Source: Scenedesmus sp. PABB004 (taxonomy: Eukaryota). Taken from it: DNA of 64,000 bases. The translations under genes were made by a program, and so were the position numbers. The notes under the pieces were generated by a model. It saw only the letters and a program-made list of their open reading frames with translations. It searched no databases and was not told the origin of the DNA. Below are positions 1 through 64,000 of this stretch, piece by piece (within the stretch, counting starts at the first letter, position 1; every line of letters starts with the position of its first letter). The stretch covers positions 2,356,001-2,420,000 of the forward strand of contig CM026547.1 in assembly GCA_014905635.1 (NCBI GenBank), written 5' to 3'.

Positions 1-400
1 GGCGTCGATGGAGGGCTTCAGCGGGCGCGAGATCGCCAAGTTCATGGCCAGCGTGCAGGCCGCCGTCTACGGCAGCGCCACGGCGCGGCTCACGCCGGAG
101 ATCTTCAAGTGCGCGGCCTGCGCCGCGCGTGGGCGCGCCGCGCCGCGCGCCCTTCGCAGCGCCCGACCGCCGGCCCCGCCCCGCCCTGCGCCGCGCCGTC
201 CCGCCCCGCCCCGCCCCGCCCCGCCGCGCCGCCGCAGCCGCGTGCTGCAGGCCAAGCTGGCCGAGCACGCCGCGCGGCGCGGCTTCCTGCTGGGCCACCA
301 CGGCACCGGCGACAGCGCGCCCCGCGCCGGCGGCGCCGGCGGCGCTGGCGGCGCCGGCGGCGCCGCGCCCGCCGACGCCGGCACCGGCAAGGCGCAGTAG
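1..400 (+). CDS. ATAD3: ATAD3-like mitochondrial AAA+ ATPase, 3' end (partial); intron 109-237
   Basis: Spliced EGFSGREIAKFMASVQAAVYGS...FNRVLQAKLAEH matches the conserved ATAD3 C-terminus. GT-AG intron; stop TAG ends at 400. Confidence 0.85.
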   Translation, partial: ASMEGFSGREIAKFMASVQAAVYGSATARLTPEIFKCAACAARGRAAPRALRSARPPAPPRPAPRRPAPPRPAPPRRRSRVLQAKLAEHAARRGFLLGHHGTGDSAPRAGGAGGAGGAGGAAPADAGTGKAQ

Positions 401-714
401 CTGGCGTGGAACGCTCCCGCGCTGTTCGTGCGAGGCGCGCATGCAAAAGCCCTCGGGGCACCCGAGTCGTCGGGGCACCCGAAGCAGCAGCAGCACACCG
501 AGGCGCCAGACCGCGCCCCGCTCCCGCCAGGCGCCCACGTCGCCTCCTAGAACGACCGCGCGTCCGACGTAGACTCCCGCGCGCGCGCAGGCCCGGCAAA
601 CGGCAGCCCGCAGCTCCTGCGGCAACGGCAGCGCGCCGCGGTGCCACGCGCTCGCGGCAATGCGACGACGCTCACGGTCCTAGGCGGCCGACGCTCGCTG
701 CTGCGCGGGGCGCC

Positions 715-3700
715 ATGACCGTGCCTCCGCAGCAGCGCTACGGCGTGCCGGCGCTGCGGCGGCCGCGGCGGACGCTCACGCCCTCCAGCACCGTGGGCCT
801 GGGCGCCGTGGTGCGGCTGGCTGTCTGCTGCGGCGGCCCCAGCGGCCAGGCGCTGCTGCGCGGGGCGGGCGCGGCGGCGCCCGCCGCTGCAGCGCCTGGT
901 GCCACCACCGCCGCCACCGCCGCCGCCGCCCCTGCGCAGGCGCTGTGCGTGGGGGTGATCTTCGTGGCGGGCCACCACAGCATATCGCGCTCGTGGCACC
1001 GAATGCACTCGCCGAGCGTGGAGCAGCCGGCGGGCTGGGCGACGCTGCACCGCACTACCACGGTCGAGACGGCTACGCTGACCATCAGCAGCAGCGCCAT
1101 CACCGGCTCCGCGCTCACCGCGACCACCACCGAGACGGCCGCCAGCGCTGAGGCGGCGGCCGCGGCGGCGGCGGCCGCGGCCGTAGGCGCCGGCGGCGCG
1201 GTGGCGCGGCAGCCCGCCGGCGACGCGGCCGCGGGCGCGCCGGGGCGCAGCAGCAGCGTGCTGCACATGCTCGGCGACCTGCAGCACAGCCTGCAGGCGA
1301 TGCTGGCGGCGCGCACGGGCTGGCGGCCGGGCGACGCAATCACGCGCGCCCACCTCGCGGCCGCGGCGGCGGCGGCGATGCCGGAGGAGGGGCGCGACAT
1401 CGAGCTCACGAGCGGCAGGGTCTCGGCGGTGCTCGGCCGCAGCCGCGCGCACCAGCAGCTGCAGCGCCTCGCGGCGCAGGCGGGCGGCGGGCTGGCGGGC
1501 GCGGACAAGGGCGAGGACGCGAGCTCCGCCGAGGCGTACGCGGTGAGGCACCGGCGGGGCGGCGCGGCCCGCCGCCAGCCAGCCGCGTGCGCGCCCGGCC
1601 GCCCGGCCGACCGCGCCGCCCCGCCCCGTGCCGCGCCGCGCCGCAGGTCCTGTACGGCCGGGGCGGGGGCACCGTGGTCTTTGCGCCGCACGACGACCTC
1701 GCGACCTGCCCCGAGGGCTCGGCCGCGCCCGGCGGCGCGGCGGCGGCGGTCGTGCTGCTCGCGCGCGGCGGCGCCGCGGCGCTCAAGCGCTCGCTGGACG
1801 GGCTGATGCTGCTGTACAGCCGCGCGGAGCCGGAGGTGCGCGCCGCGCTGCACATCTACATCGGGCTCGACAGCGACGACCCCGACCTGCGCGCCACGGC
1901 GGCCGCGTACGCGCACGAGTCGATGGGCGCGGTGAAGCTCGTGCACCACGCGCGCGCCTCGGCGAAGCACCTCAGCACCAACCAGCTGCACGACGCCGCA
2001 GCGGCCGCGGGCGCCGCGGCGCGCGCGGCGGCGGCGCCCGCGCCCGCGCACGACGCCGGCGCCCGCGCCGGCGCCGGCCCCGGCGCGGCGGCGGCGGCCA
2101 AGGCGCAGCTGGCGGCTGCGCGCAGGCTGATGGCGGGCGAGGCGGGGGCTGGCGGCAAGGCGGCCGGCGCTGCCGCAGCGGCTTGGCCGGCGGCTGGCGG
2201 CGCGCCCGCCAAGGCCGCGCAAGCTGGCGCGGGCAGCGCGGCCGCCAAGGCCGCGCCCGCCCCCGCGCGTGCGGCGGCGGCAGATGGCGGTCGCGGCGTC
2301 GGCGGCAGCAGTGGCGACGCCGCCGCGCAGGCGCCGGCGGCGGGCGGCGCCGCCCCGAGCGCGGCGGTGCCGGCGGCCGCCAAGCCCGGCGGCGGCGGCG
2401 GCGGCCCCGACTCGGCCGCCACGGCCGACGGCGCCGCGGCGGCGGAGCACGTGCGGCTGATGCTGCACGTGTTCTTTGACTGCTTTGACTTCCCCGCCGT
2501 GCTGCTGCTGGAGGACGACGCGGTGCTCGCGCCCGACGCGCTGGCCTTCTACGCCGCCGCGGCGTGGCTGCTGGAGAGCGACCCGAGCCTCTTCTGCGTG
2601 AGCGCCTTCAACCCGGTCGGGCACCGCAGCGGCGTCGTGCACCCGGGCGTCGTGCTGCGCAGCGACTACGCGCCCGGGCGCGGCGCGCTGCTGCGCCGCG
2701 AGCTCGGGCGCGCGCTGCTCGCGGGCTGGCCGGCGGCGCCGCTGGCCGACTGGGTCGAGCACCTGCGCAGCGCGCGCGTGCGCGCGGGGCGGCAGTGCGT
2801 CGTGCCTGAGATGCCTCGCCTCGCGCCGGCAGGTGGGCGCGCGCGGGGGCTCGCGCCGCGGCGCCGCCCGCGCCCGGCCGATGCTCCGCGCTTGGCAGCT
2901 GCCGCGGCTCGCCCGTGAGCCCCGCGCGCTCGCGCCCGCCGCCGCCCGCAGCCGCGGACGACACCTCGGAGGGCGCCCACGTCCACGACCCCATGCACGG
3001 CGGCAGCAAGCGCCTCGCGCCCAGCGGCGGCGGCGGCGCGGCTGCGGGCGGCGGCGACGGCGGCGCCGGGGCCGCGCCGGCGGCCGCGGGTGGCGACGAG
3101 GGCTCGCTCGACCTGGACGCATACGGCGCCGCCGGCGACGACGACGGCGCCGTGCTGGGCGCCGACGCCGGAGGCGTCGGCAGCGCGCCGGGCGCCGGGG
3201 ACGGCGGCTGGCTGCACCGCGACCTCTCGGCGCTGCTGGAGCCCTTGTACGAAGCTGGCATGGAGCAGCTGCTCCGCGGGACGCGCGTGTGCGACGTCGC
3301 GGCCGCCTCGGCGCTGCGGGGCGACGCGCGCGCGGGCGGCGGGTGCGTGGTGCCCTACTCCTCCGCCGCCTTCCTCGAGGCCGCGGCGCACCGCCTCGGC
3401 GTGCCGGTGCAGCTCGTGCCGGCGCCGGGCTACTGCTACCCGCTGCCGGGCGCGCCGCCGGGCGCGTCCGAGCACTGCCAGGTGCGCTGCTGCACGCGTC
3501 GATGCGCCGCGCGCCGCCGCCCTGCACCCGCCGACGGCCGCCGGTCGCTGGCCGCTGACCGCCGGGCGCCGCAGGACTATCTGCCTGAGATGGCGTGGCG
3601 CGGTGTGGTGCCGGGCTTCACGCACCACGGCGCCCGCGTGTGGCTCGCGCACGCGCGGTACGTCGACGCGCTGCACGGCAAGCGCCCGGCGCTTGCGGGC

Positions 3701-4096: not shown

Positions 4097-7026
4097 TCAC
4101 AGCGCGGCGCACAGCTCGCACAGCCAGGCCTCAAACTCGGACGCAATGGCCTGCAACTCCTCGGGCCCGCTCGCACCCGCGGCGCCGCTGCCGCCCGCGC
4201 CGACCAGCCGCGCGCGCTGGCCCAGCAGGTCGTACAGCTCTGTCGCGCGCCCCGCGGCGTCACGGTCGCCGCCGCGCTCGTCAAACAGCCCGCCGTCGTC
4301 GTCCGAGCTCGCTCGCGCCGCCGGGGCGGGGCCGCCGCCGTCGGGCGCCTGCTGCTGCTGCTGCTGCTGGCCGGGCGCCGGGGCAGGCACGGGCGCCTGA
4401 CCGAGACGGCCGATGGCCACCTCGAGGCCGGCCTGGCGGCAGGCCTCCACATACGCCGCCGCGCAGTCAGGCACCCCCGCGCCGCGCAGCACGCCGGCGG
4501 CCGCTGAGAGGCAGCCCGCGGCGGTGAGCAGGCCCGCGCAGCGCCAGGGGCTGCCCTCGGCGTGCCGCACGTGCGCCGCCCAGCGCGACAGCGCCTGCGC
4601 GCGCTCGGTGCCGGCCAGCGAGCGCGCTGTCAGCGCGGCGGCGAGCTGCCAGTGGCCCGCCTCCTGCAGGAGCGCCACAGCGTCCGCGTCCAGCCCCGCG
4701 CTGCAGTTGAGTGGCACGCCCAGCAGCGAGTCGCCGATGCTTGCGGCGTGCGCGGACACGACCTTGGCAGCCTGCAGGTGCAGCGTGGCCGCCTGCGCGC
4801 TGCTCGCGGCGGCGCCGCCGCCGCCGTGCGACTGCGCGGTGAGGCTGGCGGACGCGGCTAAGGCAAGCGCGCAGACGACGCTCCGGTAGTACCTGCCGCG
4901 GCCGGCGCGGCGGCGGGTGAGCGCAGTGGGTGAGCGCGGCGCCGCGCTGCGCCGCGCTGCGTGGCCGCCGCGCCGTGCGGCCGCTGGCCGCTGCTGCGCG
5001 CCGCGCTCCTCGCTCCGAGTCCAGCTGGCGAGCAGCTCACCGCACGCTGCTGTCGGGCGGCATCGACAGCAGGAAGGCGACCGCGGTGGCAAAGTCGCCC
5101 AGCACCACGTACTCAAGCAGGCGGTGCTCCAGCAGGCCCTCGGCCTCAAACACCGCCCCCGGCAGCGCCTCGTGCCAACGCAGGCGCTCCTGCTGCGCCG
5201 CCAGCACCAGCTCCTCGTCCCACAGCCGCGCCGGCCGCCCCTCGGCGGGCGGCCTGATCGCGCCGCGCGCGCTGAACTGCTGCTCGCCCGCGTGCGCACC
5301 GCTCGGGCGCACGTGGCCGGGCACCGCCGCGCCCGACCCGCGCCGGCCGAGGGCGGGCGCGGCGCCGCCGCCGGCCGCGCCCTTGCGCGGCGACGCGGCC
5401 GCGCCGAGCGCGCCCCCGTGTGGCCCGCGCACGGGCCCGGCCGCGGCGCTGCCCTCCAGCGCCGCTTGCACCATGCGGTCATAGTCCGCCACGTCCACGT
5501 CACCGTCGGCGTCCCCCGGCGGCGCCGGACCCGCAGACGCCGCGGGCGCGGCGCCCGCGGCGGCGCCGGGCTGGGCCGCTGCCGCGGCGGCGTCCGCGCC
5601 GGCGCTGCCCTGCCGCTGCGGGCCCGCCGCGCCCCCGCCCTGCTGCGCCTGCTGCGCCTGCTGCGCCTGCTGCGCCTGCTGCGCCTGCTGCGCCTGCTGC
5701 GCCTGCTGCGCCTGCTGCGCCTGCTGCGCCTGCTGCGCCTGCTGCGCCTGCTGCGCCTGCTGCGCCTGCTGCTGCGCGGCGGCGATGGCGCTCTGCAGGG
5801 CCTTCACGTGCGCCAGCGTCGGGGGCAGCGCCTCCCAGAAGCGCGCCTCGTCAGGGTCGCCGCTCAGGCGCGCCGCGACCACCATGCGCCGGGCCACCAG
5901 CCCGCTGGTCAGCGCCTGCGGCGGCCGGCGCCGACGTCGCCGCACGGTGAGCGGCGGCCGAGCGAGCGCGCAGGGCCGCCGCCGCCGCCGCCGCCGCTGC
6001 AGCAGCAGCAGGGCGGCAGCGGGCGGGCCCCACCTGTGCGTAGCCGCGCCACTCGTCCGCGTGCAGCAGCTGCCCGCTGCCGCGCAGGCCCGCGATGCGC
6101 CTGCGGCGCCGGCGCGCGGCGGTCAGCTCCGTGCGAGCTGAGCGCAGCGCGTGAGAGCCGCCCGCGCGCCGCTGCCCGCGCAGCACACACCGCAGCAGCC
6201 CGACCAGGTCGCCGTCAAAGCGCTCCGCCCTGAAGCCGGGCGCCTGGCAGCTCTCACCCTGCGCCGGCCCGCTGGCCAGCGCGCCGGCGCCCTTGAGCAG
6301 CAGGGGCGTGGACTTGGCCTTGGCGAGGTGGTGCGCGGCCGCGTCGCGTGCCTGCACCGCAGCCTCGGACGACGTCGCGCGCAGGCTGCCAGGCAGGCTC
6401 AGCGGCGGCTGCAGCGTGTCCAGTGCGCCGGACGCCGCCTGCGCGGATATGTGTGCGAGCGCGGCGCGCGCGGCGCGCGGCAGCAGCTGCTGCAGCTCGC
6501 TGCGTGCGTCGTCGAGCTCGTCGCTGCTGCCGCTGCTGACAAACATCAGCGCGTCCTGCGACACGCCCAGCTGCGGGGCGCAGGCGCACGGGCGGCGCAG
6601 CGACCGCGTTGGCCGGTCGGCGGCGGGCCGGCGCCGCCGTGCGGGCAGCCGGCGGGCGGCGGGCGGCGCGCCGCCCGGGCGCCACGCACCTGCAGCAGCG
6701 CACGCAGCAGCAGCACCCAGGGCTGGGGCAGCATCACGCTCGGCCCCAGCGGCCGCGGCGGCTGCAGCACCAGCGGACGCCGTGCCCCGCCGGGCAACGC
6801 CGCGACCGCTGGTGCCGCGAGCGCCTGGTGCAGCAGCGCGGCGCGCGCGCGCGGGCCAGCGCTGCCGGGCGTGGGCGGCGTCGCGACGTCCAGCAGCGCG
6901 AGCGAGCCGTCCTCCAGCACCACCGCCAGGACGCTGCCCGCGCCGGCGGCCCTGCGGCGCACGGCGGCGCCCGCGCCTGAGCAGCAGCGCGCCCACGGCG
7001 CAGCGCGCCCACGGCGCAGCGCGCGT

Positions 7027-12142: not shown

Positions 12143-13641
12143 ATGGCAAGGACGGCGCCGCCGGCAGGGCGCCAGACCCAGCCGCACGCCAAGCAGCAGC
12201 AGCAGCTGGAGCAGCATGAGCAGCAGCAGGGGCAGGGCCGGCCGCGGCCGGGCAGCGGCGGCGCGGCCAGGCAGCGGCGGCGCTCCGCGCCGGCGGCGGC
12301 GTCGTGCCCCGTCGCGCGCCGCGTCTGCGCCGAGCTCGGCGCGGCGCGGCGGCGCGAGGCGCGCGCGCAGCTGGCGGGCGCCAGCGCGTTTGGCGGCCTG
12401 CTCTTTGTGGCCGGCGCGGTGCCGGCGGCGCTGCCGTTTGTGTTCCTCGTGTTTTTCGCCGTCGCCATGCCCCTGCGCGCCGCCGCGTTCTGGCGCTCCA
12501 GCGCGCGCTTCTACTTGCTGGACTTCTGCTACTTCGTCAACGCCGCCGTCGCGGCGGTGCTGCTGCTCGCGCCCGACGACCCGCGCGCCGAGGCGGCGGC
12601 GAGCGCGCTCGCCGACGGCCCGCTCGCCGGCGCGCTGGCGGCGTGGCAGTGCCCGTGGATCTGGGGCAGCGCCGAGCACACGGTCAGCGTGCTGATGCAC
12701 CACCTGCCAGGGCTCGCCCTCTACGCGCACCGCCACCACACGCCGCGCGCGCTGCGCGGCTGGCGCGGCCTCGCGCGCGCGGCGGCGGGGCTCGCGCGCG
12801 GGCAGCTGCCCCCGCTGGGCGCCGCGCCGGCGCCGCCGAGCCGCCCCGAGCACCTCGCGCTGTGGCTGGGCGCCGCGCCGCTCGTGTTCTACGCGGTGTG
12901 GCAGCTCCTGTACTTCCTGGCGGTGCAGGAGCGCGGCGGCGGCGCGGCGGCGGGGCGGGCCGTGGGGCGTGCCGCACGCGGCGTGCCGCGCGCCCCCGGT
13001 CGCCGGCGCGCCGCCGCCCGAGCCCCCGCCTCTCCCCCTCTCCCCTCTCTCCCGCCCGCACAGGTGGTCTGGCGCAGCTTCATCCTGTCGCACGGCTATG
13101 AGACCAGCTACACCTGCCTCGCAGCGCGCGCGGCTAAGACGAACAACTTTTGGAACCGCCTAGTGCGCCGCGGCAGCATCGCGCGGCGCTGCGCGGTCTA
13201 CGGCGCGCTGCAGCTCGCGTTCACGGTGCTGTGCCTGGTGCTGTTCGTGCCGACCTACCTCGACTGGCGCCTCGCCCTCCTCCTGCAGGCGCGCGCGCGG
13301 GCGGCGCGCAGCAGGGCGGGGCCGCCGCCGCCGCGCCGGCGCTCACCTCACCGCACGGCACACCACCGCAGGCCGCCAAGTTTGTCGTCCCGCTCTATTA
13401 CGGCTGCCGCTTTGCCGCGGTCAAGGCGCCGCAGCACGCGTTCCTCGATGGCCTGGCCGCCTTCAAGGCCATCGAGGCGGCGGAGCAGGCGGAGCAGGCG
13501 GCCGCCGCGGCGGGGGCGCAGCACCCGCCGCAGCACCAGGCGCAGCCGCGGCGCGGCGGCGCGGCGCGGCGCGCGTGCGCGGCGGAGGCGGTGCCGTGCA
13601 GCAGCTGCGGCGCGGCCGCGCCGCGCGCGGTCGCGGCGTGA
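12143..13641 (+). CDS. GPC1: Glycerophosphocholine acyltransferase (GPC1/DUF2838 family); 3 exons
   Basis: Motifs FYLLDFCYFVN, GPLAGA..W, SVLMHHLPG, WQLLYF and TSY; multi-TM protein. Introns ~12923/12929-13063 and 13289-13371 (GC-AG). Confidence 0.85.
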
Positions 13642-19989: not shown

Positions 19990-20057
<68 letters not shown>

Positions 20058-36303: not shown

Positions 36304-38429
36304 CTGCTGCCGCCGCGGCTTCCTGGCCGCGGCGCGCCGGCGCCAGCGGCGGCGGCGGCGGCGGCGGCGGGCGGCGGCGGCGGCGGCGGCGGCGGCCGGC
36401 TGCCGCTCGCGGCTGCGGCTCCTGCTGCGGCTGCGGCGCCGGCTGGGCGGCCGCCCGCCCGCGCCGCCGCCGTCTGGCGGCCGCTGCTGCTGCGCGCCGC
36501 TGCCGCTGCCGCTGCCGTCGGCGCGCCGCCTCTTGGCCTGCTGGTCGTCGCCTCCGGCGGAGCTCGCCCGCGCGCGCTTGGCCGCAGCCTCCTGCGCGCG
36601 CGGGGGCGACGCCGGCGACGCCAGCTCCTGCTGCGCCTGCTGCTGCCGCGCCTGCTGCGGCCTCGGCGCGGCGCCGTTGGCGGGCAGCACGTCCGCGTAC
36701 GGGTTGCGGCCCTGCTCGCCGCCGCCCTGCGCGGCGGCGCCGTCCTCGTCGTCCCACGCCGCCGCCGCCTGCCCGTTGGCCGCGGCCGCGCCGCCGTCTG
36801 GCATGAAGCTGCCGGCGAGGTCGCGCAGCGGCTGCTGCTGCTCCGGCAGCTGGCCCAGGCACGCGCGCAGGTGGGCGTAGTCGGGCGCGTCCTCAAAGCC
36901 CAGGCCCTCCAGGTGGCGCGAGATGGCCGCCAGCGGCTCTGCGGCGCGGTGCGGCGCGTGCGGCGCTCGAGCCGGGCGCGCGCGCAGGCGCCCGCCGCCG
37001 GCGCCCGCCGGCGCGCCCCGCACCTGGCAGCGCCACGCTGCGCGCGAGCAGGCTGGGCTGCGCGATGCAGGCCTCCTTCTGCGCCTGCACCCACTGCTTG
37101 TCCGTCTGCACGTGCGGCTCGCCGCCCTCCTTGTCCTGCCGCCAGGGCAGGCCGCCTGCGCGCGGGCGCGGCGCGAGCGGCGGCGCGGGCGGCGTCGCGG
37201 GCGCGGCGTGGGCGCGGCGCGAGCTGCGCCGGCGGCGGGGGTGGCCGCGGGGCGCGGCCTTGGCGCGGCGCGGCGCGGCGCGCGCGCCGTCGAGGAGCTC
37301 CGCCAGCATGTAGAGCCATGACCAGAGGTCGTCACGGCGGGAGAGGTCCTCGTCCTTGTGCGCGTGCACGCTCGCGTACGTGGTGCTGCCGCGGAACGAC
37401 GCGTCGAGCCGCGGCGCGAGGTGCGCGCCGCCGTCGTCGGTGAAGCGCCGCGCGAGGCCAAAGTCGATGAGCGCCCACGCGCCTGGGCCGCGCGCGCGGC
37501 GGCACGGCGCGGCGCACTCTGACGCCCCGCGCCGCGCGCGGTGCGGCGCGGCCGGCGCCGGCGCGCGCGGCCGCCCGCGCGCCCGGCCGCGCCCGGCGCG
37601 CACCCTTGGCGGCGGCGGCGTTGGGCGGGCTGATGACAAAGTTTGCTGGCTTGATGTCGCGGTGGATGAGCCACGCGCCGTGCACCTGCTCGATCGCGCC
37701 CAGCGTGCTCAGGCCGACCGCCTTGAGCGTGGCCAGGTCGACGCGGCCGCCGAGCGCCTTGCGCGCGTCGTACAGCGTCTCGCCCAGCAGCTGCGCGCGA
37801 CAAACGCACGCGCGCGGGCGGGCGGCGGGAGCACGCGGGCGGCGTGAGCGCGCGCCGCTGGCGCCGCCGGCCTCCTCCAGCTGCGCGCGCCGCGGCGCGG
37901 CGCTCCGACCTGCATGACCATGAAGAAGCGCTCGTTGTGCACGCCGCACCCCTCCACCGCGACGACCTGGGAGCACTGCCCCGACAGCCGCTTCAGCGCC
38001 TGCGGCGCCGCCGCGGCGGGCGGCGCGCGCGAGCGGTCGGGCGCCGCTGCTGCCCGCCGCGCGCCGCGGCGTCAGCAAGCGCCTGCTCGCCCACAACCCC
38101 CTCCCCCGGGGCGCGCCTTGTACTCCTGCTTGACCGTGTTACGGTCCTTGCGCTTCTCCAGCTTGAGCGCATACTGCGGCGGCCGGCGGCGCCGCGGCCG
38201 GTCCGCGCGCCGGCAACCGGGTGCCGCCCCCCCCCCCCCCCCCCCCGCGCGCGCGCCGCCGCCGCCGCCGCCGCGCGGCGCGCCGGCTCACGCGCAGGTC
38301 GAGCTTGGCGGCGCCGGGGTCGTAGAGCTTCACCTCCCACACCTCGGCGAACTGGCCCTCGCCCAGCTTGCGCGTCACCACGTAGCGCCGACCCTCGCCC
38401 AGCACGTCACCCTTGTGCAGCAGCGGCAT
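35865..38429 (-). CDS. Tau-tubulin kinase / casein kinase 1 group Ser/Thr kinase; 7 exons, 1 apparent frameshift in the tail
   Basis: Motifs LGEGQFAEV, YALKLE, IHRDIKPANF, IDFGLARRF, FRGSTTYAS, RRDDLWSWLYML and LPW. Confidence 0.9.
36237..36299 (-). repeat. (CAG)21 poly-Gln tract in the kinase tail
   Basis: Read directly as (CTG)n on the + strand. Confidence 0.9.
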
Positions 38430-47123: not shown

Positions 47124-49682
47124 CTACCACCAGGCGGCGGCGCGCGGGCGCGGCGGCGCGCGCGAAAAGTGCAGGACGCTCGAGTAGAGCGCGTCGCTCA
47201 CGGCCACGAACAGCGCCGCGCCGTCGGGGCTGAACGACGTCCCCGAAATTTCGCCAAAGAGGTCAACCTCCTGCACCCCCGCCGGCGCGCCGCCGGGGCC
47301 GAGCGCATACACGTGCACAAAGTCGGCCGGCTCCGCGGCGGCGAGCAGGGCGCCGTCGGGGCTGAAGCGCAGCGACCGCACCGCGCCCATCGCGCCGCCC
47401 AGCACGGCGAGGCTCGCGCCCGGCTGGCGCACGTCCCACAGCCGCGTCGTGGCGTCCTGCGCGGCGCGGGGCGGGCGGTGCGCGTCAGGCGGCGGCGGCG
47501 CGAGCGGCGGCGGCGTGCGCGGCAGCGGCGGGGGCCGCGGCGGGGCGGCCCCGGCTGGGCGGGCGGCGGGCGGCGGGCGGCGGTGGGCGGGCGGGTGGGC
47601 GGGTCACCTGGTTGCCGGTCGCGAGCAGCTGGCCGTCCGGGTGCCACGCGACGGCAAAGGAAAAGTCCCGGTGCCCCACCAGCTTCATGACCTGCGGCGC
47701 GCGGCGGCGGCGGCGGCGTCGACACGGCCGCGCCCGGCGGCGGGGTACCCCGGCCGGCGGGCAAGGCCCGCCCCGGCGCGGCGCGCGCACCTCGAGGCCG
47801 CTGCGCACGTCGAGCAGCAGGGTGGCGGGGTCGTCGCCCACGACCGCAACGAGGGAGCCGCCGCCGACGCTGGCGCCGTCGGGGCGCAGGCTCGCGTAGT
47901 TGACCGCCCAGGGCAGCGCGAGGCGGCCGCGCGGGCGCGCGCCGGCGACGTCAAAGAGGCGCACGCAGGCGTCGTTGTTGCTCGTCATCACGCACGCGCC
48001 CGCGCTGCCTGCGCGTGTGTGGTGTGTGTGTGTGGGGGGGGGTGGTGATGATGATGCGGCAGGGGAGAGGGCGGCAGGGGCGGCGGGGCGGGGCCGGCGC
48101 GACGTCGGCGACGGCGGGGACCCGCGGGGCGCGCGCGGCCCCTGCGCGGGGGCGCGCACATGAGTCAAAGATCTCGATGCCGTTGGTGATGCCGTTCTCG
48201 CTCTGCGTCACGCGGCAGCTGTGCCACAGCTCCGCCGCCTCCGGCCCCGCCGCGCACATGACGCGCTCGCCGCCCGACTGCGCGCCGCCGCCCGGCGGCG
48301 GGCGCTGCGCCTGCTGCTGCGCCGGCTGCTGCGCCGGCTGCGGGCGCCGCCGCACTCGTGGCGGGCCCGCGTGCGGCTGCCGCTGCTGCGGCTGCTGCGG
48401 CTGCTGCTGCTCGCGCGCCCGTGATTGTGCCTGCTCCAGCAGCGCCACGCCCGGCCACTGCTGCTGCCGGCACGCCCAGGCGCGGGGTGGCTGGCCCGGC
48501 TGCCCCAGCGGCTGCTGGGGCTGCTGGGGCTGCTGCTGCTGCTGCTGGTGCAGCTGCCACGGCCGCTCCGCCTGGGCGGCGGCCTCGTCGGGGCCGTCCC
48601 AGCCGTTCTCCGCCGTGTCCATGGCGGCGCTGTCCGCCGCCGCGGCCGCCTGCTCCGCCGCCTCCGCCGCCTCCTCCTCCTCCGAGCTCCAGCCCGGCTC
48701 GCGCTTGTCCAGCCGCGCGAGCACCAGCTCGCCTGTGAAGCCGCCGGCCGCCAGCAGCTCGCCCGCGACGCACATACTGCTCACCTGCACGCGGCGGCAG
48801 CGGCGGCGGCGGCGGCATCGGCGGCGGCATCGGCGGCGTGCTGGGGGCGCGTCGACGGCGGCTGTCGCGCCCCGCCCCGCCCCGCCCCGCCCGCGCGGGC
48901 CGGCGGCGCCGCCGGCGCGCCTGCACGCGGCCGAGCCCCGGCAGGCGCGGGCCCTTTGGCGGGCCGCGCAGGTCGAGCACGTCTCCGAGCGCGCGCGTTG
49001 CGGTGTTGAACGCGCGCACGCGGTTGTCGTGCACCACGTACACGTCGTGCGCGCTGCCCGCCCAGCAGAGGTTGCGCAGCTGGAAGTGCACGATCGACGA
49101 CGCCACGCGCCGCCAGTTGCGCACAAAGGCGTAGGGGCAGGCCGGCGCGGGCAGCGCGGGCGGCTGCGCCCAGCCCGCGAGCAGGTCGCGCCGCACCGCG
49201 GGCCAGGCGGCCTCGTCGATGACGTTGGTGTAGTTGCGGTAGCTGCTCACACGCTGCGCGCGGTAGCGCACACGCGACACCTGCGCGGCGCGGCCGTGAG
49301 CCGGCGCGGGCGCGTCGGCGCGGGCGCGGCGGCGGCGCGCGGCGGCGCAGCGCGAGCGCGCGGTGCCGGCGGCGCGCGGGCGCGAGCACGAGTGCGCGGC
49401 CACCACCGCGGCCGCGCGCGCCTGCAGGCGCTCCCACGCGATGCCCTGCAGGTCGCGCCCCGCCGCCGCCTGCTGCGCGGTCGTGTCGGCCTCCTCGAGC
49501 TCGTCGGCTTCAAACTCCTCCACCGGCTCGTCGTCGCTGCTGCTGTCGTCGCCGTCCGCCCAGCTCAGCGGCGCGCCGCCCGGCGGCGCGCAGCTGCCCG
49601 CGCGGCTCGCGCCCGCGCCGCCGCTGCCCGCGCTACTGCCGTCGGCGCCGCGCTCGCCGCGGCCGCCCGCCTCGTCCGCCAT
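47124..49682 (-). CDS. WD40 repeat protein (DUF2415 / C2A9.03-like); about 6 exons
   Basis: Motifs GRDLQGIAWE, IVHFQLRNL, AGGFTGEL, NGITNGIEI, SNNDACVR, GHRDFSFAVAWHPDG, ATGNQ|DATTRLWD, AEPADFVHVY and QEVDLFGEISG. Confidence 0.9.
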
Positions 49683-50458
49683 CGCCGGCGCCCCTGCTCC
49701 CCTGCTGCTCCTGCTCCTGCCACCTCGGCCCGCCCCGCCGGCGGCGGCCCTGCGGCGAGCGTCGACGCAGCGCGTGTCGGCGTCGGCAGCAGCGGCGCGG
49801 CGCGGCGCGCGGGCTGCGGGCTGCCGGGCGGCCTGCCCGGCCTGGCCGGGCTCGAGGCCGGTATCTGGAGGCCACCTGGCCAGCCCTGGCGCCCGGCCCG
49901 CGATTGCACGGCGCGCGCCAGGCTGCGGCACTGCAGCAGCGCGCGCCGACTGGCGCAGCGCCCACCTGCTGTCGCTCCGGGCCGGCCCACGCGAACTCCC
50001 AAGGCCCCTCCGGCGCGGGCGCGAGCTGCCGGTGCTCCGGTGCTGCCGCGGAAGCGAAAGGCCGGCGCGCTCCCTGCGTCTCGTTCGCGGCGGCGTGCGG
50101 CTGCTGCGGTGCGCCGTCTGCTGGTGCCGATCGGGCGGGCTCGGGCCTGCGCGCCGCGCCGCCGCGCTGCACCGCGCTGCACCGCCGCGCCCGCTCTCGG
50201 GCGCTGCACCGCCGCGCAAAGGGGACAGTGCGCTAGTGTTCCAACAACTCGCCCGCCATCGCAGCAGTCAACAGGAGGCCGCCACCACACACGCCGCCAG
50301 CCAGACCCGCCCACGCGCACGCGCTCGCTTGCCGCGACTCTCGCCGCCGGGCACCTCCCTCCGCCGCCGGCCGCCGTGCCGGCGCGCCCCAAGCCATCCC
50401 CCGAACGCGCCCGCCCCCGGCCCCGGCGCGCGCGCGTCGCGTCGCGTCGCCGCGGCCC

Positions 50459-51587
50459 TCACTCGTCGTCGCCGCGCCACTCGTCGTCGAGGTCGCCCGT
50501 GTCCTCGTCGTCGTCGTCGCCGCCGCGCGCGGCGGCCGAGGACTTGCTGCGCGACCCGCTCGGCCGGCTGCGGCCGCTGCCGCCGTCGGCCTTCTTGCCC
50601 TTGGTCGACATGAGCAGCGCCTCGAGGCGCTCCGCCTGCTCGCGCGACAGCTCGTTGTGGCCGAGCTTGCGCTGCTGCTGGCCCATCCAGTAGTGCAGGT
50701 GGCGCTCGCTGTCCTCGGGCGCCGTGCGGCGCGGGCGGAAGCCGTTGCGCGACACAAAGTCGTGCAGGTCGGCGAAGCGCTTCTCCCACGCGTCGGGGCC
50801 AGTCGTCTTGGTGCCGCCGCCCGCGCCGCGCTTGCGCGGCGGCGGCGCCGGCGCCGCGGGGCCGGGCGAGTCGCCGCGCTCGGGCGAGGAGATGGGGTCG
50901 CCGTACCTGCGGGCGCAAGAGCGTGCGCGAGGGGGCGCGGGAGGGCGGGGGTTGTTTTTTTGGGGGGGGGGTGTCAGCAGCAGCAGCGGCCGCCGCGGGG
51001 CCGCCGCGGGGCCGGCAGCGCGCGCTGCCGCCGCCCGCGCGCGTTCAGGCCGCCGCCGCCGCGGCCGCGGCGGCCGCCGCCGCGACCATCGCCGCTGCCG
51101 CCGGCCCTGCCCGCGCGGCCGCGGCGCGGGCTGCTGCTGCTCGCCTGCGGTAGAGGTCTGTGTTGTCGCGGATGAGGCGGATGGCCTCGCCCGGCTGCTC
51201 GCGGCCGTACACGTCGGGCAGCGCGCTGGGGTTGCCCTCGGCGTCGCAGTTGTGGATGTAGAGCGGCGCGTTGAGGCGCAGCGCCATCTCCTCGTACATC
51301 AGCACGCGCACGCCCTCCTTGCCGTTGTCGTGGAACGCCTGCGCCCGCCCGCGGCGGCGGCGCGCCGCGCGCGTCGGGCGGGCGCGCCGCGCGGCTGCGC
51401 GCCGCGCGCGCGGCGCCGCCCCGCGCCGCGCAGCGGGGCCGCGCGGCCGCGCGCCGCGGCACCCCGCCGCGCCCGCCGCCGCCGCCGCGCGGCGCCGCGC
51501 GGCGCGCACCTGCACGATGCGCTCGGGCATCGTGTCGGCCAGCTCGTCCGAGCTGAAGCCGAGCAGGTCGAAAAAGTTCTTGGCCAT
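50459..51587 (-). CDS. Small protein with a C-terminal helicase-associated (HA) domain; 3 exons
   Basis: WEKRFADLHDFVSRNG..P......LHYWMGQQQRK....LSREQAERLEAL fits the HA consensus. One GT and one GC donor. Confidence 0.7.
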
Positions 51588-52506
51588 CGTGCCCGCTCGC
51601 GCGCGCTCGCTCGCTGCGCGCGCCGCTCAACAACAGCAGCGGCCGCTGCCTGCTGCTCCGGCGGGCTCGCGCCGGCGTCGGCGCGTCGCTGTGCGCGCCG
51701 GGGCTGGGGCGGCCGTCGCGGCTCCGGGGTCGGAGCCCGAGGCGCTGGCGGGGGTGGCAGCGCGGGGCGGCCGGGGGCCGCGCTGCTGCTGCGCGCGGGT
51801 GCTGCTGATGGGGGGCCGGCGAGCGGCGCGCGAGGCTCCGCAGCCTGCGCCGCGCGGGTTCGCTGTGGCTGCCCCGGGGGCACGCCTCGGGCCAAGATCG
51901 GGCCCGGCGGTGGGCCTGTGGGCGCGGTGGGCGGGCCCCGCGGAAGCGCGAGCAGCAGCAGGCCGGTCTGCGAACAACCAGCTGCCCGCGGCGTGCGGAG
52001 GTCACTGGGAGACGGCGCACTGGGCAAACCGGCAGGGCGCGCGCCGCGCAGCGCGCGGGCAGCTCAAAAACCTTGCGGCCGCGCCCCGGCCGCGCCCGGG
52101 CGTCCCGTGCCGCCCCGCAGCGCTCAGCGCCCGCCCTCATCATCCACGGCATCGATCACCGCCCGCCGCCCGCGTCCGTGTTCGCCCCCCGCCGGCGCAG
52201 CAGCAGCGCGCGCCCGGCGCCCGCCACGCCGCACTCGCGCCTTGCCGGGCCCAACGCGCCCGCCATCGCGGCCGCAAGCCGCCGCCGGCCGCGCCCGCAT
52301 CCGCCGCGGCCGCCGCGCCGCCGGCGGGGCCCCGGCCGCCGCTGCTGCGCGCCGCCGTCGCCGTCAGCGGCCCCCGGCGCGCCGCCCGGCCCGCCCGCCC
52401 CAGGACTCGCGCCTGGGGCGCCCGGCGGCGCGCGGCGCGCGGCAGCAGCCGCCGCGCCTGGCGCACGGGCGCCGGCGCCGCGGCGCGCGGCTTGTTGTCA
52501 ATCGCG

Positions 52507-53535
52507 ATGGCGACGCTCGACAACCGCCAGTACTTTCCCAGCTTTGACGAGCTGCCGCTCATGGACGAGTTCGTGGACCCCGTCTACTACGCCGACGTGG
52601 GCGGCGGCACGATGCTGCCGACCAAGCACTGGTGCGGCCGCTCACCGGCGCCGCGCCGCGCGCCGCGGACGGCGGTCCTGCAAGGCGCGCGGCGCGGGCG
52701 GTCGTGCAAGGCGCGCGCCGCGGTCGTGCAAGGCGCGTGCCGCCGCGCCGCGCGCCGCAGGGCGTTTGTGGCCGACATCGTGGACGACAGCCTCAGCCAC
52801 GTGCGCGGCGCGGCGCGGCGCGGCGCGGCGCGCGGGTCGGCCGCCCGCCCGCCCCTCTCCCCGCCCGCCCGCCGACACGCCGCCGCCCGCCCCGCCCCGC
52901 CGCCCGGCCGTGCGGCGCGGCGCGCCGTCAGATGGCTGACTTTTTCCACCGCGTCGAGGTGCGCGACCTCACCGGCACGAGCGCGAGCGTGCTCTTCACG
53001 CCCGACCAGCGCATGAACTACGGCCAGCTGCGGCGCGGGTGCACGCTGTTTGTGCGCTACGCGGCCAAGGCCTACTTCAGCGACCTCATCACGCAGGCGC
53101 GCGCGCACCCGCGGCGCACCCGCGGCGCCAGCGCGGCGGGGCCGCCGCTGCGGGGCCGGCGCCGCGCTCTGTGCGCCCTGCGGGGTACCCGGCGCGCACG
53201 CGCTCTCCGACGCCCGTCCTTCATGCCCCCCCCCCCCCCCCCAGGTGATCAAGGTCGAGGACTGCGCGTACGTCAAGGTCATCCCCCGCCCCCTGGACGA
53301 CCTCATGATGCTCAGCGCATGGTACTTTGGCGGCTCAACCTGCGCCGCGTGCCGCGCGCCGCTCGGCGGCGCGGGCGTTGCGTGCGGCCGCTGCGAGGCG
53401 GCGCACTACTGCGGCGGCGCGTGCATGGCCGCGCACGCGCGCGAGCACGCGGCGCACTGCGGGCTGTGCGCGTCGCTGATGCAGGTGCTCAACGTGGACA
53501 TGGACAGATTCATGCAGCCCGTGCCCTTCCGCTAG
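52507..53535 (+). CDS. MYND-type zinc finger protein; 4 exons
   Basis: C-terminal CAAC...CGRC...YC...C...H...HAAHC. N-terminal [21 protein letters not shown] domain. Confidence 0.8.
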
Positions 53536-57417: not shown

Positions 57418-57461
<44 letters not shown>

Positions 57462-60400
57462 GTCTGCTGCTGCTGCGCCGCGCCGCCGCTGCCTGCCGCG
57501 GCGCCTGCCGCGGCGCCCGCCGCGGCGGTTGGCTGGCGCGCCGCCGGCGCGGGCTCGCTGCCGGGCTGCAGGTGGCGGTGCCGCCACTCGTCGCCGGGCG
57601 GGCAGTCGGGGCGGGAGCGGAACTGGCAGGGCGCGGCCATGCCGCAGGCGAGCGGGTGCTGCAGCACCCAGCTGTACTGCGTGAGGTTGACGTCGGGGCG
57701 GCGCTGCGGCGGCGACGTGAACCCCGGTGCGGTGAACGCCGCGCCCAGGCGGCGCTCCGGCGGCGTGAGGTCGGAGCCCTGCTTGAGCAGCAGCTGCTTC
57801 ATGAGGTCCACCAGGAAGTCAAAGCAGGCGCCCATCTGGCAGAGGGGCAGGGAGGCAAGGGGGGGGGGGGGGAGGGGGGGTCAGCGGGCGCGGCGCGGGC
57901 GCCGGCGCTGGCGCTGGCGCCGGCGCGGCGGGGCGCGCGCCCCACGTTGTGGCTGGAGTCGAGGCAGTTTGTGTCGCCCAGCACCGCGACGGACCCCTTG
58001 CCGCTGGGCGTGATGCCAAAGCTCGCGTACTCGCCCGGCACGCCCGCGCCCTTGCCCGCGACGTCGGTGAGCGCCGAGGTGTGCAAGAAGCCGCCCGCCG
58101 GAAACTTGGCGATGTTGGAGCCGTAGAAGAGCTGCGGGCGCGGCGCCAGGTCAGCAGCGGCCAGGTCAGCCGAGGCCAGGCCGGCGGCACGCCCGCGCGG
58201 CCGCGCGCCCGCATGCCGCGCGTGCGCCGCGAGCGCGCCGCGGGCGCGCCTGCACGCTGTGCTTGCCGAGCTGCACGGTGCCCTGCAGGATGCGCTCGCC
58301 GAGCGTGACGGCGTGCGGGGCGAGCAGGTCGTTGAGCGCGGGGACGTTGGCGCCGCCGGTGATGGGCGTCCACCAGCTGCGCGTGTTGTCGTCAAAAAAC
58401 TTCATCGCGCGCAGGCTCTCCTCGTGGTACCTGGCCGGCCGGCGGTCGCACGCGGCGGTCGGCGCGGTCGGCAGGGGTGCAGGGGCGCGGGCCCGAGGGC
58501 GGGCTCCGCGGCGGGCGCCGCGGCCGCGCCGCGCCGCGGGCCGCCGCGCGCACCACTCCGCGAAGACCACGAGCGCCATGCCCTGCTCCTTCACCGCCGC
58601 CGCGAGCGCGTCGACCTCCTCCCTGCCGCGGCGGCGGCGGCGGCGGCGCGCTCGGCGCCCGCGCCCGCGCGCCGCGCCCGCGCGCCGCACGCGCGGCGCG
58701 CCGCCCCTGCCCGCCGCCGGCCACGCCGTGCCGCGGGGCGTTGGGCTCGCGCGCTGGGCGCGGTCTGACCTGTACCACTCCTCCTCTGCGTCGAGCACCA
58801 GGTAGGCGCCGTAGTTGGCCGCGTCGAAGCACGTCCCCGGCGCGCTGAGCACCTCGACGAAGAAGCCCGCGCGCACGAGCGCGTTGAAGGCGTCGTGGTA
58901 GTTGGTGTACGGGTGGTCGCCGTGCCAGTCGAGCACGTCGCTCTGCGGGGGGGGGGGGGGGGGTCAAGAGGCGCGCGCGGGGGCGCGCGGGTCAAGAGGC
59001 ACGCGCGGCGCGCAGGCAGCGCAGGCAGAGAGGCGGCGGCGCGCCGCCGCCGGGGCCACGCCGCCACCGCCGCCCCGCCCCCCCCCCCCCCCCCATCTCC
59101 CGACACACACCGCCACCGCCGCGCGCGCACCTTGACGTCGAGGTTGTCGCGCGGCACGTAGCCGGGCGGGTACTTGATGCTGTGCAGCACGTCCCACACC
59201 ACGCGGCGCTGCCGCGGCGGCGTGGGCGCGATGACCGCGCTCAGCGGCACGCTCACGGTGCTGGTCTGGTTGGACCCGCCCGCGCCCATGCGGGGCGGGC
59301 TGACGATCGTGAACGTCACGCGGCCGGTCGCGTTGCCGCTGAAGTTCCACGCCGCCGGCGACACCTGCGCGCACGGGCACGCGGCGGTGGCGCCGCGCCG
59401 CCGCGCGCGGCCGAGGCACCGGGGCGCGGCGGGGCGCGCGGCGCGCGCACGCGCGGCGGCGGCGCGCGCCTGGACGTGCACCGCGAGGAAGCCGGACCAG
59501 GGCCAGAGCACGTCGCTGTGGGTGAAGGTCACGTGCAGGAGCTTGCCCGCGGCGTTGGTCGCCTCGTAGCGCGGCGGGCCCGCAAAGTAGCCGGTGTTGG
59601 CCATGCCGTTGATGACGGTGCCGTTGAGCACGAGCGGCAGGCCAAACGCGTAGAGGGGCTGGGTGCAGTGCGGCCACACGTAGGGGCAGTCGGCGAGGTG
59701 CAGCGCGGGCGGGATGAGCGACGCGCGGGGCGTGTAGCTCGCCAGGATGGCCTGGCTGGCGGGCAGGTTGATGCGGCCGTTGCCCTGCTCGTGCATGTTG
59801 AGCCCCGGCAGCCGCGCCGCGCCCTCCACCAGTGCCTGCTTCATCGACGCCGGGTTGAGCAGCTGGCGCCGCGGCGGCGTGCGGCGTGTGGGCGGGGCGC
59901 GCGGCGGCGCCGGCGGCAGTTCGCCACCCCGGCACCACCCCCGCCGCGCGGCGCGCGCCTCACCCAGCGCCGCTCCTCCGGCAGCGTGCTCGCGAGCAGG
60001 CAGACCGCGCCCGCGACGACGGGGCTGGCCACGCTCGTGCCGCTGAGGCTGCGGCAGCCGGTCGTGATCTTGCTGCCCGTCACGTCCTTGGCGTACGCCA
60101 TGACGTCGGGCTTGATGCGCCCTGCGCGGCGGAGCGGCGGTCAGCGGCCCGGCGGCCCGGCGGCCCCGGGCGGCCCCGGGCGCGCGGCGCGGCGCGTGTG
60201 CCCGCCGCCGCCGGCGCGTCGCCGCGCCCGCCGCGCCCGCGCGGCGCACCCGTGCCGGTGGGCAGCTCCCAGGTCGTCATGCCGCGGCTGGAGAAGCCGG
60301 CGATCGCGTCGGCGTTGTCGATGCCCCCGACGCCGACGACGTCGGGCTGGTCGGCGGGGTTGTTGAGCGTGCCGTAGAGGGGGCCGTCGTTGCCGATCGC

Positions 60401-61430
60401 GCTGACCATGATGAGCCCGTTGCTCGTGACCTCGCGCACCTTGTCCACAAAGGGCGCGTCCAGGAAGTCGGGGCCCCCGATGGAGAGGTTTATGACAGTC
60501 AGGCGGCTCGCGATCGCGTAGTTGAAGGCGTCCAGGAACCAGCTCGTGTAGCTCACCTGGTCGTCGGTAAACACCTGCGGCCGGGGGTGTTGGGCGAGCG
60601 CGAGGGTGAGCGCGAGCGAGGGGCGGCTCCTCGGCGCGGGCGCCGCGCGCGCAGCGCACAGCGCAGCGCGAGCGCGGGCCGCCCCGCGCGGGCGGCGGCG
60701 CGCGCCTTGAAGGTGTAGAGCTCGACGTCTGGCGCAAAGCCGGGGCAGGCCTCGTCCTGGCTGCCGATCACGCCCGCCACGAAGCTGCCGTGCCCGAGGC
60801 CGTCGCTGAGCGAGTCCTGGTGCGTCCAGTTGGTGCGCTCCTTGATGTGCCGGATGTGGGGGTGGCCCTCGCGGATGCCGGTGTCAAACACGCCCACGCG
60901 GATGCCCTTGCCGCTGTGGCCCTGCTCCCAGAGCTTGCCCGCCTCCAGCAGCGTCGTCACGCGCGTGTCGGGCCCCGCCGCGAGGCCGCGGCGCTGCGCG
61001 GCGGGCCGCCGCCCCGCGAGCGCCGCGAGCAGCCGGCCCACGCTCGCGAGCCGCCGCCCGCGGCGCCGCCGGCGCAGCTCCTCCTTGCCCCCGCCGGCCT
61101 CACGGTCGGCCGGGTTGGCAGGGTCCAGCCCGATGGTGGGCTTGGTGCGCAGCCGCCCGGGCGGCTTGCTCACGGCCCAGATGTCGCCCCACTCGTCCTC
61201 GGCGGTCGCGTTGTCGCCCGGCTCCGCCGCCTGCTCCTGCTGCCCCTGCGCCGCCGCCTCGGGCGAGGGCGCCGGCGGCGTCCCGCTGGCGCCGGCGGCA
61301 GCGGGCTCGCCGTCCGCGAGCAGGTGCCGCGACGCCGCCGGCGCGTCGCCCTGCTCGACGGGCTCGCGGTGCAGCCTCAGGCCCGCCGCGTCGCCGCGCA
61401 GCGCCGCGTGCGGCTGCCCCTGCCCCTGCC

Positions 61431-61471
<41 letters not shown>

Positions 61472-62096: not shown

Positions 62097-62951
62097 GGTC
62101 GCGTCCTGGCGCGGCGCCCCTTAGCACGAGCGCACCTGCATGCTGCCTCGCCGCGGCGCCCCTGCGGACGCACGCGCGCGGCGCGGCGCGTCGGGCGGGG
62201 CACGGGGCAGCAGCAGCGCGGCGCAACCGCCGCCGCCGCCGGCCGGGCCGGTGCCGGCCGCTGCCCGCGCCGCGCCGCCGCGCTGGCGGCAGGGCCGCGC
62301 CCGCTGCCGATGCCGCTCAGGGGCGCGGGGACGCGCAGGAGCCGCACCTCGCGGGTGGTTGAGGGAGAGGCTGCTGCGCCCGCTCCTGCAGTGCCGGGGC
62401 TGCCGCAAACTGGCTCCCGGTTCCTGGCGCCTGACAGGGATGATGTCACAAGCCCCCCTCCGGAGCGCACGGCCGGCCTTGACGGCGGAGTTCGACTTGC
62501 CCGCGGCCGCTCGGCGCGCTGGGCGGCCGTGCGGGCCCAGGGCGCTGCTGGTGAGGGCGCCGGGATCGGCGGTGTGCTGGAGACGCGGCGCGGGCGGGCC
62601 ACGGCTCGCGGGCGCAGCGGCGGGGCCCATCAATCGGCGCGCCGCTGTGCCCTGCTGGATTTTGACACGCGAACGGCGCGCGGGGCCATTCGATCGGCGC
62701 GAGCACGAACGCACTCCCTCCGACACAGCGGCGCCGCTCGCCAGGCGCCCCACAGGCCTCGCCCCGCCCGCGCGCCAGCAGCCCGCGCCCCCAAGCACCC
62801 CCGCCGCCCACGCGGCCGCTCTTCGTCGCTTCGACCGATCCCGCGCCGCCGCCGGACGCGCCGCGGTCCCTAGCAGCCGGCGGGCTGCGGCGGGCGCCCT
62901 CTGCTGCTGCCCCGGCCGCCTGCCGCAGCGTCCGTCGCTGGCGCGGGCGCC

Positions 62952-63820
62952 ATGGGCGACCAGTTCTACCTGCGCTACTACGTGGGGCACACCGGCAAAT
63001 ACGGGCACGAGTTCCTGGAGTTCGAGTTCAGGCCTGATGGCGAGGTGCGCCCCCGCCCGCTGCGCGCCCCCTGGCGGGCCCGGCGGCCGCCCGGGCGGGA
63101 GATCAGGGCCCAGGCGCAGCCCTCCCGCGCCGGCGGCGCCGGCCGCCGCTCCGGCGCGGCGCGGCGGGCGCGCGCGCGCGGGAGCAGCGGCGGCGCCGCC
63201 GCGGGCGCCGGCGGCCCCACGCGCCGGCGGCGGCGGCGCGCGCAGATGCGCTACCGCAACAACTCAAACTACAAGAACGACACGGAGATCCGGAAAAAGG
63301 CGCACGTGTCGCAGGCGGTGCTGGACGAGCTGAAGCGCATCATCGAGGACGCCGAGGTGCGCGCGCGGCGCGCGGTGCGCGGCGCCGGCGCGCTGCGGCG
63401 GCGCCGGCGGCGGCGAGGCGGGCCCAGGCGTCGGCAGCAGCCGGCGCCGGGGCAGCAGCTGGCGGCGGGGCAGCAGCCGGGGGGGGGGGGGGCAGCAGCC
63501 GGCGGCGGGGCAGCAGCCGGCGGGGGGGGGGGGGGGGCAGCAGCCGGCGGCGCGCAAGCGCGCGGCGCGCCGCCGTGCCGCCGCGCCGACCCGCCGCCGC
63601 CGCCGCCGCCGCGCCCGGGCGTCGGTGCGCGCGTGTTGCGCAGATCATGAAGGAGGACGACAACAACTGGCCCATGCCGGACCGCGTGGGCAAGCAGGAG
63701 CTGGAGATCAAGATGAACGGCGAGCACATCTGCTTCAACACGACCAAGCTCGGCAGCGTGCTGCAGGTGCAGCAGAGCAAGGACCCGGACGGCCTGCGGA
63801 TATTCTACTACCTCGTGCAG
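62952..63820 (+). CDS. MAGO: Mago nashi, exon junction complex core; first 3 exons, last exon lies beyond the window
   Basis: [49 protein letters not shown] and [13 protein letters not shown], followed by a GT donor at 63821. Confidence 0.97.
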
Positions 63821-64000
63821 GTGACGCCCGCTGGCACGAGCACAGCACGGCGCGCAGCACACACAGCACGCAGCACGCACCGCAGCACACAGCGGGAGGC
63901 GCAGGCGGCGCGGCGCAGCGGCGGCGGCGCAGCGGCGGCGGCAGCAACGGCGGCAGCGCAGCGGCAGAGCGGCAGCACAGCGCTGGCGAGCACGCGGGCG

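Follow-up and report, generated by a model that had tools for sequence, protein, structure and literature searches.

GC-AG introns make up about a fifth to a quarter of the introns in a 64-kb window from a GC-extreme green alga

Introns that start with GC and end with AG are a small minority in plants and human, where they are reported at 1.2% of plant introns (PMC6310983) and at about 1% in human, with compensatory signals (PMC3167603). Several algae carry far more of them. In the haptophyte Emiliania huxleyi, GC-AG was reported for 56% of 241 curated junctions, nine GC junctions being confirmed by reverse-transcription polymerase chain reaction (RT-PCR), and Feldmesser et al. (2014) attributed this abundance to the genome's GC content (PMC4028052). 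Among pelagophytes, GC-AG introns reach about 14–17% in Aureococcus and about 14% in Pelagomonas, versus 0.32% in the lower-GC Aureoumbra, and this abundance was likewise attributed to high genome GC (bioRxiv 10.1101/2024.10.30.620910). Splice-site GC is reported to correlate positively with genome GC (PMC7072748), and GTGCGTG has been described as the donor consensus of the green alga Ostreococcus lucimarinus (Irimia and Roy, 2008; PMC2483917). Here we describe the introns in a 64-kb stretch of contig CM026547.1 of Scenedesmus sp. PABB004 (the window), whose genes have their closest protein relatives in the Sphaeropleales, i.e. chlorophycean green algae. The share of GC-AG introns in this window is about 21–26%, or roughly one intron in four or five.

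Emiliania huxleyi resembles the window in that a GC-rich alga uses GC donors routinely while the acceptor stays AG, and in that predictors expecting GT misplace junctions there, as a public protein model (P0131) reads through an intron here (PMC4028052). In contrast, 56–60% of its introns are GC-AG at 65% genome GC, against about 21–26% at about 80% GC here; its lineage is unrelated, and its junctions are backed by RT-PCR and expressed sequence tags, whereas those described here are known from DNA and protein homology (PMC4028052). The magnitude of the GC-AG share matches that in Aureococcus anophagefferens and Pelagomonas calceolata, but these are stramenopiles with 0.1–0.9 introns per gene, whereas the chlorophycean green alga of the window has several per gene (bioRxiv 10.1101/2024.10.30.620910). 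Ostreococcus lucimarinus, also a green alga, has the same atypical GTGCG core, and matching changes in small nuclear RNAs (snRNAs) have been asked about there too; its consensus retains a T at +6 (PMC2483917), a position that C occupies in 47 of the 61 confident introns defined below for the window. Finally, the U2-type GC-AG introns of plants and animals share with ours the GC start, the AG end and a stronger match to the remaining donor consensus, but the frequency here is 15- to 25-fold higher and the compensating positions +3 to +6 read GCGC, not AAGT. A first-pass annotation of this DNA had contrasted its GC donors with a level of about 1% elsewhere, which agrees with the 1.2% reported for plants. 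In the literature searched, supplements aside, we found no GC-AG frequencies for Sphaeropleales or other green algae, although tables belonging to PMC6310983 and PMC7072748 could hold some. The window extends the GC-AG excess known in haptophyte and pelagophyte algae to a green alga, and does so at the most extreme GC content, about 80%.

GC content is 78–83% throughout the window and third-position GC (GC3) of its coding sequence is near 1.0; for the Scenedesmus strain named as the source of P0131, a genome GC content of 78.5% is reported (PMC12571836). We counted introns with a splice model in which coding log-odds are joined to matrices for donor and acceptor and to a prior on GT versus GC, and in which AG is required at the 3′ end. 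The model was trained on the window by expectation-maximization, for which three different starts gave the same solution, and it reproduced 10/10 homology-derived junctions in the gene for site-1 protease (S1P/MBTPS1). Introns were taken as confident at a posterior of at least 0.9, a length of 40–600 and splice scores summing to 3 nats or more, which kept 61 of 102 same-strand gaps. These comprise 45 GT and 16 GC introns (26% GC). The 41 gaps that fell below the cut-offs hold 14 GT calls and 27 GC calls; adding the GT calls brings the GC share to 16/75 (21%), whereas the GC calls, mostly low-complexity or intergenic gaps, were not counted. The first-pass annotation had put the figure at about 15 of roughly 80 introns, which is about right. 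The share is drawn from 64 kb, whereas the genome spans tens of megabases.

Donor identity was read from conserved protein sequence in three genes. Around each intron, every junction that kept the frame, avoided stops and had an AG acceptor was translated, whichever of the 16 dinucleotides stood at the donor, and the peptides were scored in fixed outer windows against homologue profiles only, from which the same-organism protein P0131 was excluded. Over 21 junctions, the top-scoring donor was GC at 7, GT at 12 and another dinucleotide at 2. In the S1P gene (10 introns), GC scored highest at 60705, 59469 and 58249, GT at five, and another dinucleotide at two, where GT trailed by 1.4 and 3.7 bits. 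In the tau-tubulin-kinase-like gene (six introns), GC was on top at 38116 and 37287 and GT at four, and in the WD40 gene (five introns) GC was on top at 49421 and 48920 and GT at three. At these seven sites and at 44866 in the Aurora-like kinase gene, exact excision of the GC-AG intron restores the conserved protein without an indel.

All three S1P introns lie on the minus strand. The intron at 60575–60705 (131 nt; ttcaag/GCGCGCGC...CCGCAG/gtg, slashes marking splice sites) was the best of 228 candidates (224.4 bits vs. 194.4 for the best GT; posterior 1.00), and its removal makes profile positions 265 and 266 contiguous. The intron at 59365–59469 (105 nt; gtccag/GCGCGCGC) led 80 candidates with 118.1 bits, against 107.8 for a GT 6 nt upstream (posterior 1.00), and joins positions 83 and 84 of the Pfam family MBTPS1_3rd. 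The third, at 58132–58249 (118 nt; gtgcag/GCGCGCCC), also led 80 candidates (105.9 bits vs. 97.7 for a GT 6 nt upstream; posterior 1.00). On the same strand, the tau-tubulin-kinase-like gene carries GC-AG introns at 38000–38116 (117 nt; tacaag/GCGCGCCC; best of 173 candidates, 64.5 bits vs. 44.9 for the best GT; posterior 1.00) and 37156–37287 (132 nt; tcgacg/GCGCGCGC; best of 150, 153.0 bits vs. 146.9 for the next, no GT candidate being available; posterior 0.98). Both WD40-gene introns are on the minus strand as well. That at 49281–49421 (141 nt, in frame; ctgcag/GCGCGCGC) was the best of 120 candidates (107.7 bits vs. 97.4 for the best GT), and its spliced peptide scored 127.4 bits against 114.5 for read-through, so the homologues disfavour read-through by 12.9 bits. 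That at 48785–48920 (136 nt; gtgcag/GCGCGCCG) again led 120 candidates (99.1 bits vs. 86.8 for a GT 6 nt upstream).

The Aurora-like kinase intron (44866–44976, plus strand; ccacag/GCGCGCCG...CCGCAG/gga) was placed with the Pfam Pkinase profile. The match to profile positions 71–121 stops at the last residue before the donor, the match to 123–153 resumes at the first residue after the acceptor, and the split codon AG/G fills position 122, the R of H-R-D; no GT-AG solution exists within 60 nt. The first-pass annotation had given this motif and the S1P junction at 60705 (minus strand) as examples that could be rebuilt only with GC donors; Pkinase positions 121, 122 and 123 are contiguous across 44866, and GC leads the best GT by 30 bits at 60705.

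An in-frame GT lies exactly 6 nt upstream of 3 of the 16 confident GC donors, all on the minus strand (58249–58255, 59469–59475 and 48920–48926). These pairs read GTGCAG/GC twice and GTCCAG/GC once, and homology favours the GC member by 8–12 bits. The two sites of each pair could still serve as alternatives, with two residues gained or lost according to the donor used.

The same scan was applied to a control set of 80 metagenome loci encoding S1P relatives, with exons mapped, which gave 69 junctions, 53 of them distinct, at 32–73% GC. GT was on top at 41 of the distinct junctions, GC at 0 and another dinucleotide at 12, and at these 12 the profile matches on either side overlap one another, are separated by a gap or have low scores. 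The difference between 7/21 GC-top junctions in the window and 0/53 in the control is significant (Fisher p = 6.5e-5); thus GC donors are not a product of the scan itself, even where the DNA is GC-rich. The donor starts with GTGCG at 8 of the 41 control GT junctions, mostly followed by T, and two of these lie in a single locus of 51% GC. One S1P intron position, 265/266 of the profile, is shared between the window and the control loci fetched; the other nine are shared with none of them. At this position a metagenome contig of 73% GC (L064) has an intron at 4152–4359 with a GT donor (tacaag/GTGCGGTG), where the window has the GC donor of 60705. L064 also contains two further gaps without any GT candidate, which might be GC-AG or other non-GT introns.

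The 15 donors that the first-pass annotation had listed were examined without splice signals as well. All 15 carry G then C on the strand given for them, and the exon end and donor read AG/GC at 13 and CG/GC at two (31554 and 37287). A splice-site-naive codon hidden Markov model (HMM) with seven states (noncoding plus three codon positions per strand) predicted 113 coding segments in the window. Its coding-to-noncoding boundaries fall within 1 nt of 10/15 listed sites, 4 nt from 44866, 6 nt from 51144, 20 nt from 49421 and 50 nt from 48920, and the HMM places no boundary near 30724. The motif AGGCGCG occurs 70 times on the two strands, 8 of them within 3 nt of a blind boundary versus 0.43 expected (p = 1.4e-8), and AGGTG is enriched alike (10 vs. 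0.78 expected). Coding potential alone does not separate GT from GC donor candidates, because some GC dinucleotide is always nearby. The splice model recovered 14/15 listed sites at a posterior of at least 0.92, all of them among the 16 confident GC introns, and 8/15 are backed by homology.

The remaining recovered sites come from the splice model. In the HA-domain gene, the intron at 50907–51144 (minus strand, 238 nt; ccgcag/GCGAGCAG; posterior 1.00, no GT alternative) also appears in the public gene model. The others are ab initio calls on the plus strand, each starting exactly at a blind exon end: 13289–13371 in the DUF2838 gene (83 nt; ctgcag/GCGCGCGC; posterior 1.00, best GT 18.3 nats worse), 20764–20864 (101 nt; ctcaag/GCACGCCG; posterior 0.99, best GT 22.6 nats worse) and 21413–21519 (107 nt; ctgcag/GCGCGGCG; posterior 1.00, no GT alternative) in the formin-like gene, 31554–31689 in a coiled-coil gene (136 nt; aagacg/GCGCGCGC; posterior 0.95, no GT alternative) and 53097–53244 in the zf-MYND gene (148 nt; acgcag/GCGCGCGC...CCCCCCCCAG/gtg; posterior 1.00, best GT 18.2 nats worse). 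None of these five lengths is divisible by 3, so an intron is required to reconcile the frames on either side, and a GT solution is absent or at least 18 nats worse at each. For the two formin sites, a Pfam search with E up to 1 hit just one exon of five, all 12 homologues from a representative search start downstream of both junctions, and PDB searches with two exons returned only FH2 matches at E > 1 and chance matches.

Two further GC-AG candidates on the plus strand were absent from the first-pass list, both ab initio. One is in the GNT-I gene at 2770–2951 (tgcgca/GCGCGCGC; posterior 0.99) and the other lies upstream in the formin-like gene at 20056–20309 (gcagaa/GCGCGGCC; posterior 0.97), the latter being weak since poly-Q and low-complexity coding sequence flank it. 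The listed site that was not recovered, 30724, would be the end of a 23-codon first exon with an ATG at about 30655 (30655–30724, plus strand, ending ccaag/GCGCGG); we found for it neither a blind coding segment nor a homologue, and no acceptor to pair with it, and its surroundings are an otherwise noncoding stretch at about 70% GC. Around it, some 800 nt (30180–30995, plus strand) have lower GC (about 63–80% per codon phase), no periodicity and stops in all three forward frames. This stretch is probably intergenic and divides two genes that a reader might join.

The public model P0131 (934 aa) is 100% identical over the query exon and contains junction peptides specific to GC-AG splicing at 48920 and 51144. 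The model also reads through the 141-nt in-frame GC-AG intron at 49281–49421. P0131 (47127–51594, minus strand) joins the HA-domain gene (50462–51594) to the WD40 gene (47167–49686) and reads through low-complexity sequence at 48338–48430, where there is a possible 93-nt in-frame intron (gagcag/GCACAATC) that is low-complexity and absent from homologues. It looks like a fused, partly mis-spliced model.

The GC donors resemble the GT donors of the window and lack the U12-type motif (ATCC at +3 to +6). Among the 45 GT donors, A is found at −2 in 26, G at −1 in 37, G at +3 in 42, C at +4 in 31, G at +5 in 42 and C at +6 in 33; the corresponding counts for the 16 GC donors are 13, 14, 15, 15, 16 and 14. 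Positions +3 to +6 of the GC donors read GCGC in 12, GCGG in two, ACGC in one and GAGC in one, and GCGC is also present in 24/45 GT donors, in line with the first-pass remark that GC donors mirror GT donors. Over all 61 confident introns, T stands at +2 in 45 and C in 16; C stands at +4 in 46; and at +6 there is C in 47 and T in two. Among donors fixed by homology, and therefore free of bias from the model's matrices, GCGC occupies +3 to +6 in 8/8 GC but 6/14 GT donors (p = 0.018). Intron length and acceptor score do not differ between GC and GT introns. The acceptor consensus is CGCAG/G, with C at −3 in 98%. Long runs of C only (up to about 26) precede the AG at 53229–53244 (plus strand) and at about 34652–34680, 58945–58960 and 57852–57880 (minus strand), and the pyrimidine tract in this genome appears to be made of C rather than T.

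We consider it likely that these GC-AG introns are ordinary introns of the major (U2-type) spliceosome in which GC pressure has put C in place of T at +2, with U1 and U6 unchanged. The lineage's donor consensus, AG/GTGCG followed by T or C, is shared with other green algae and would go back to an ancestral AG/GTGCGT. With GC at about 80%, a substitution bias in favour of G and C would have nearly erased T at +6, a nearly free position, and would have turned T to C at +2, still selected, in about a fifth to a quarter of introns. A C at +2 would be acceptable where all other donor positions match the consensus (AG/G.GCGC), leaving enough pairing with U1 and U6. Such a course agrees with what GC donors elsewhere show and with the accounts offered for E. 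huxleyi, Aureococcus and Pelagomonas. We infer that the change ran from GT to GC, that GC-biased mutation or gene conversion drove it, and that unchanged U1 and U6 splice these introns. T is kept at +2 in 45/61 introns though T makes up 10% of the bases of the window, which argues that +2 is still under selection. In addition, GTGCG donors occur in relatives at 51–71% GC without GC donors, so the unusual +4 predates the GC-AG excess. With T still kept at +2, a tighter consensus in GC donors and GTGCG present in relatives that show no excess of GC donors, a changed U1 or U6 is not needed.

Alternatively, as the first-pass annotation suggested, the spliceosome may have been retuned, such that a change in the U1 5′ end, in the ACAGAGA box of U6 or in a protein associated with them lets G-Y-G-C-G-C be read and C at +2 comes cheap. 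In its favour, donors depart from GTRAGT at +4 (C in 46/61) and +6 (C in 47/61), and Irimia and Roy raised the same option for the GTGCGTG donors of Ostreococcus, leaving it open (PMC2483917). A retuned reader of donors sits poorly, however, with the retention of T at +2 in so T-poor a sequence, with the need of GC donors for a stricter remaining consensus (8/8 vs. 6/14), and with GTGCG donors in relatives that have no GC donors, and we regard it as unlikely. The same low probability attaches to the version in which the major spliceosome has co-evolved with its donors (through the U1 5′ end, the U6 ACAGAGA box or a U1-C/Prp8 contact) to the point where GC is nearly equal to GT. A search of the window with Rfam families at gathering thresholds gave 0 matches, hence no snRNA gene lies within it.

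It is less likely still that most GC donors are artefacts of modelling, the true donors being nearby GT sites or the segments staying coding. GC makes up 22% of all dinucleotides in the window, and coding potential by itself cannot tell the two kinds of candidate apart; the 42% GC share of the untrimmed model is too high because it counts low-complexity and intergenic gaps, which are no introns; an in-frame GT precedes 58249, 59469 and 48920; and P0131 reads through the intron at 49421. Against this, homology prefers GC over the best GT by 8.2 to 30 bits at six scanned sites, and the seventh (37287) has no GT candidate, whereas no control junction chose GC. Within the search range there is no GT-AG solution at 21413, 31554, 51144, 37287 or 44866, and in 9/14 recovered introns the length cannot be divided by 3, so that reading through them would disrupt the frame. 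C-to-U editing of the pre-mRNA at +2, or systematic T-to-C assembly errors that hide a GU seen by the spliceosome, is the least credible reading, since GC donors differ from GT donors elsewhere in the site, which neither editing nor random error predicts, RT-PCR-confirmed GC-AG introns are reported in another GC-rich alga (PMC4028052), and no such nuclear donor-site editing was found in the literature searched.

Several points weigh against ordinary U2-type introns shaped by GC pressure as the full account. That U1 and U6 are unchanged is an assumption of this account. The higher GC-AG rate of E. huxleyi at a lower genome GC (65%) means that GC content alone does not set the rate. The preference of GC donors for AG at the exon end is a trend only, both among homology-fixed donors (7/8 vs. 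7/14 for GT; p = 0.17) and among confident introns (12/16 vs. 21/45; p = 0.08). The donor-flank score is higher for GC than for GT donors (4.66 vs. 3.60 nats; p = 0.037), a comparison biased because the model demands more of GC candidates. In vivo use of the GC donors is argued from protein homology and coding statistics; the introns at 13289, 20764, 21413, 31554 and 53097 are ab initio calls, that at 51144 is a call of the splice model also found in the public gene model, and 30724 has no homologue. Finally, the figures come from the 64-kb window only, and the genome-wide GC-AG rate may differ.

By Pfam matches of exon translations, the run of genes in the window comprises GNT-I, WDR11, ribosomal S20, DUF2838, TAF4, a formin-like protein, patatin, the tau-tubulin-kinase-like kinase, phosphomannose isomerase, the Aurora-like kinase, the WD40 protein, the HA-domain protein, zf-MYND, VPS36, S1P/MBTPS1 and Mago nashi. 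In the formin-like gene, the conserved SARIRTL-type segment with which all relatives of its large exon begin maps to 21787–21866 (plus strand), which is noncoding in the coding HMM and whose frame differs from that of the sequence starting at 21867. Within 21787–22014 the model probably lacks a small intron or a short exon. The intron after the DFG exon of the Aurora-like kinase (45085–45252, plus strand) contains about four tandem copies of an approximately 20-nt unit resembling GCCGCGCCGCGCCGCCGCAC. Tandem repeats inside introns are also known in E. huxleyi.

Our results do not overturn current understanding, but they are relevant to annotators and to those who study splice-site evolution. 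Gene predictors that expect GT would get about every fourth or fifth intron of this genome wrong, and the protein sets of such genomes would therefore carry spurious insertions and truncations. The contrast between +6, where T is almost gone, and +2, where T is kept in about three quarters of introns, offers a direct reading of selection at each donor position under GC pressure.

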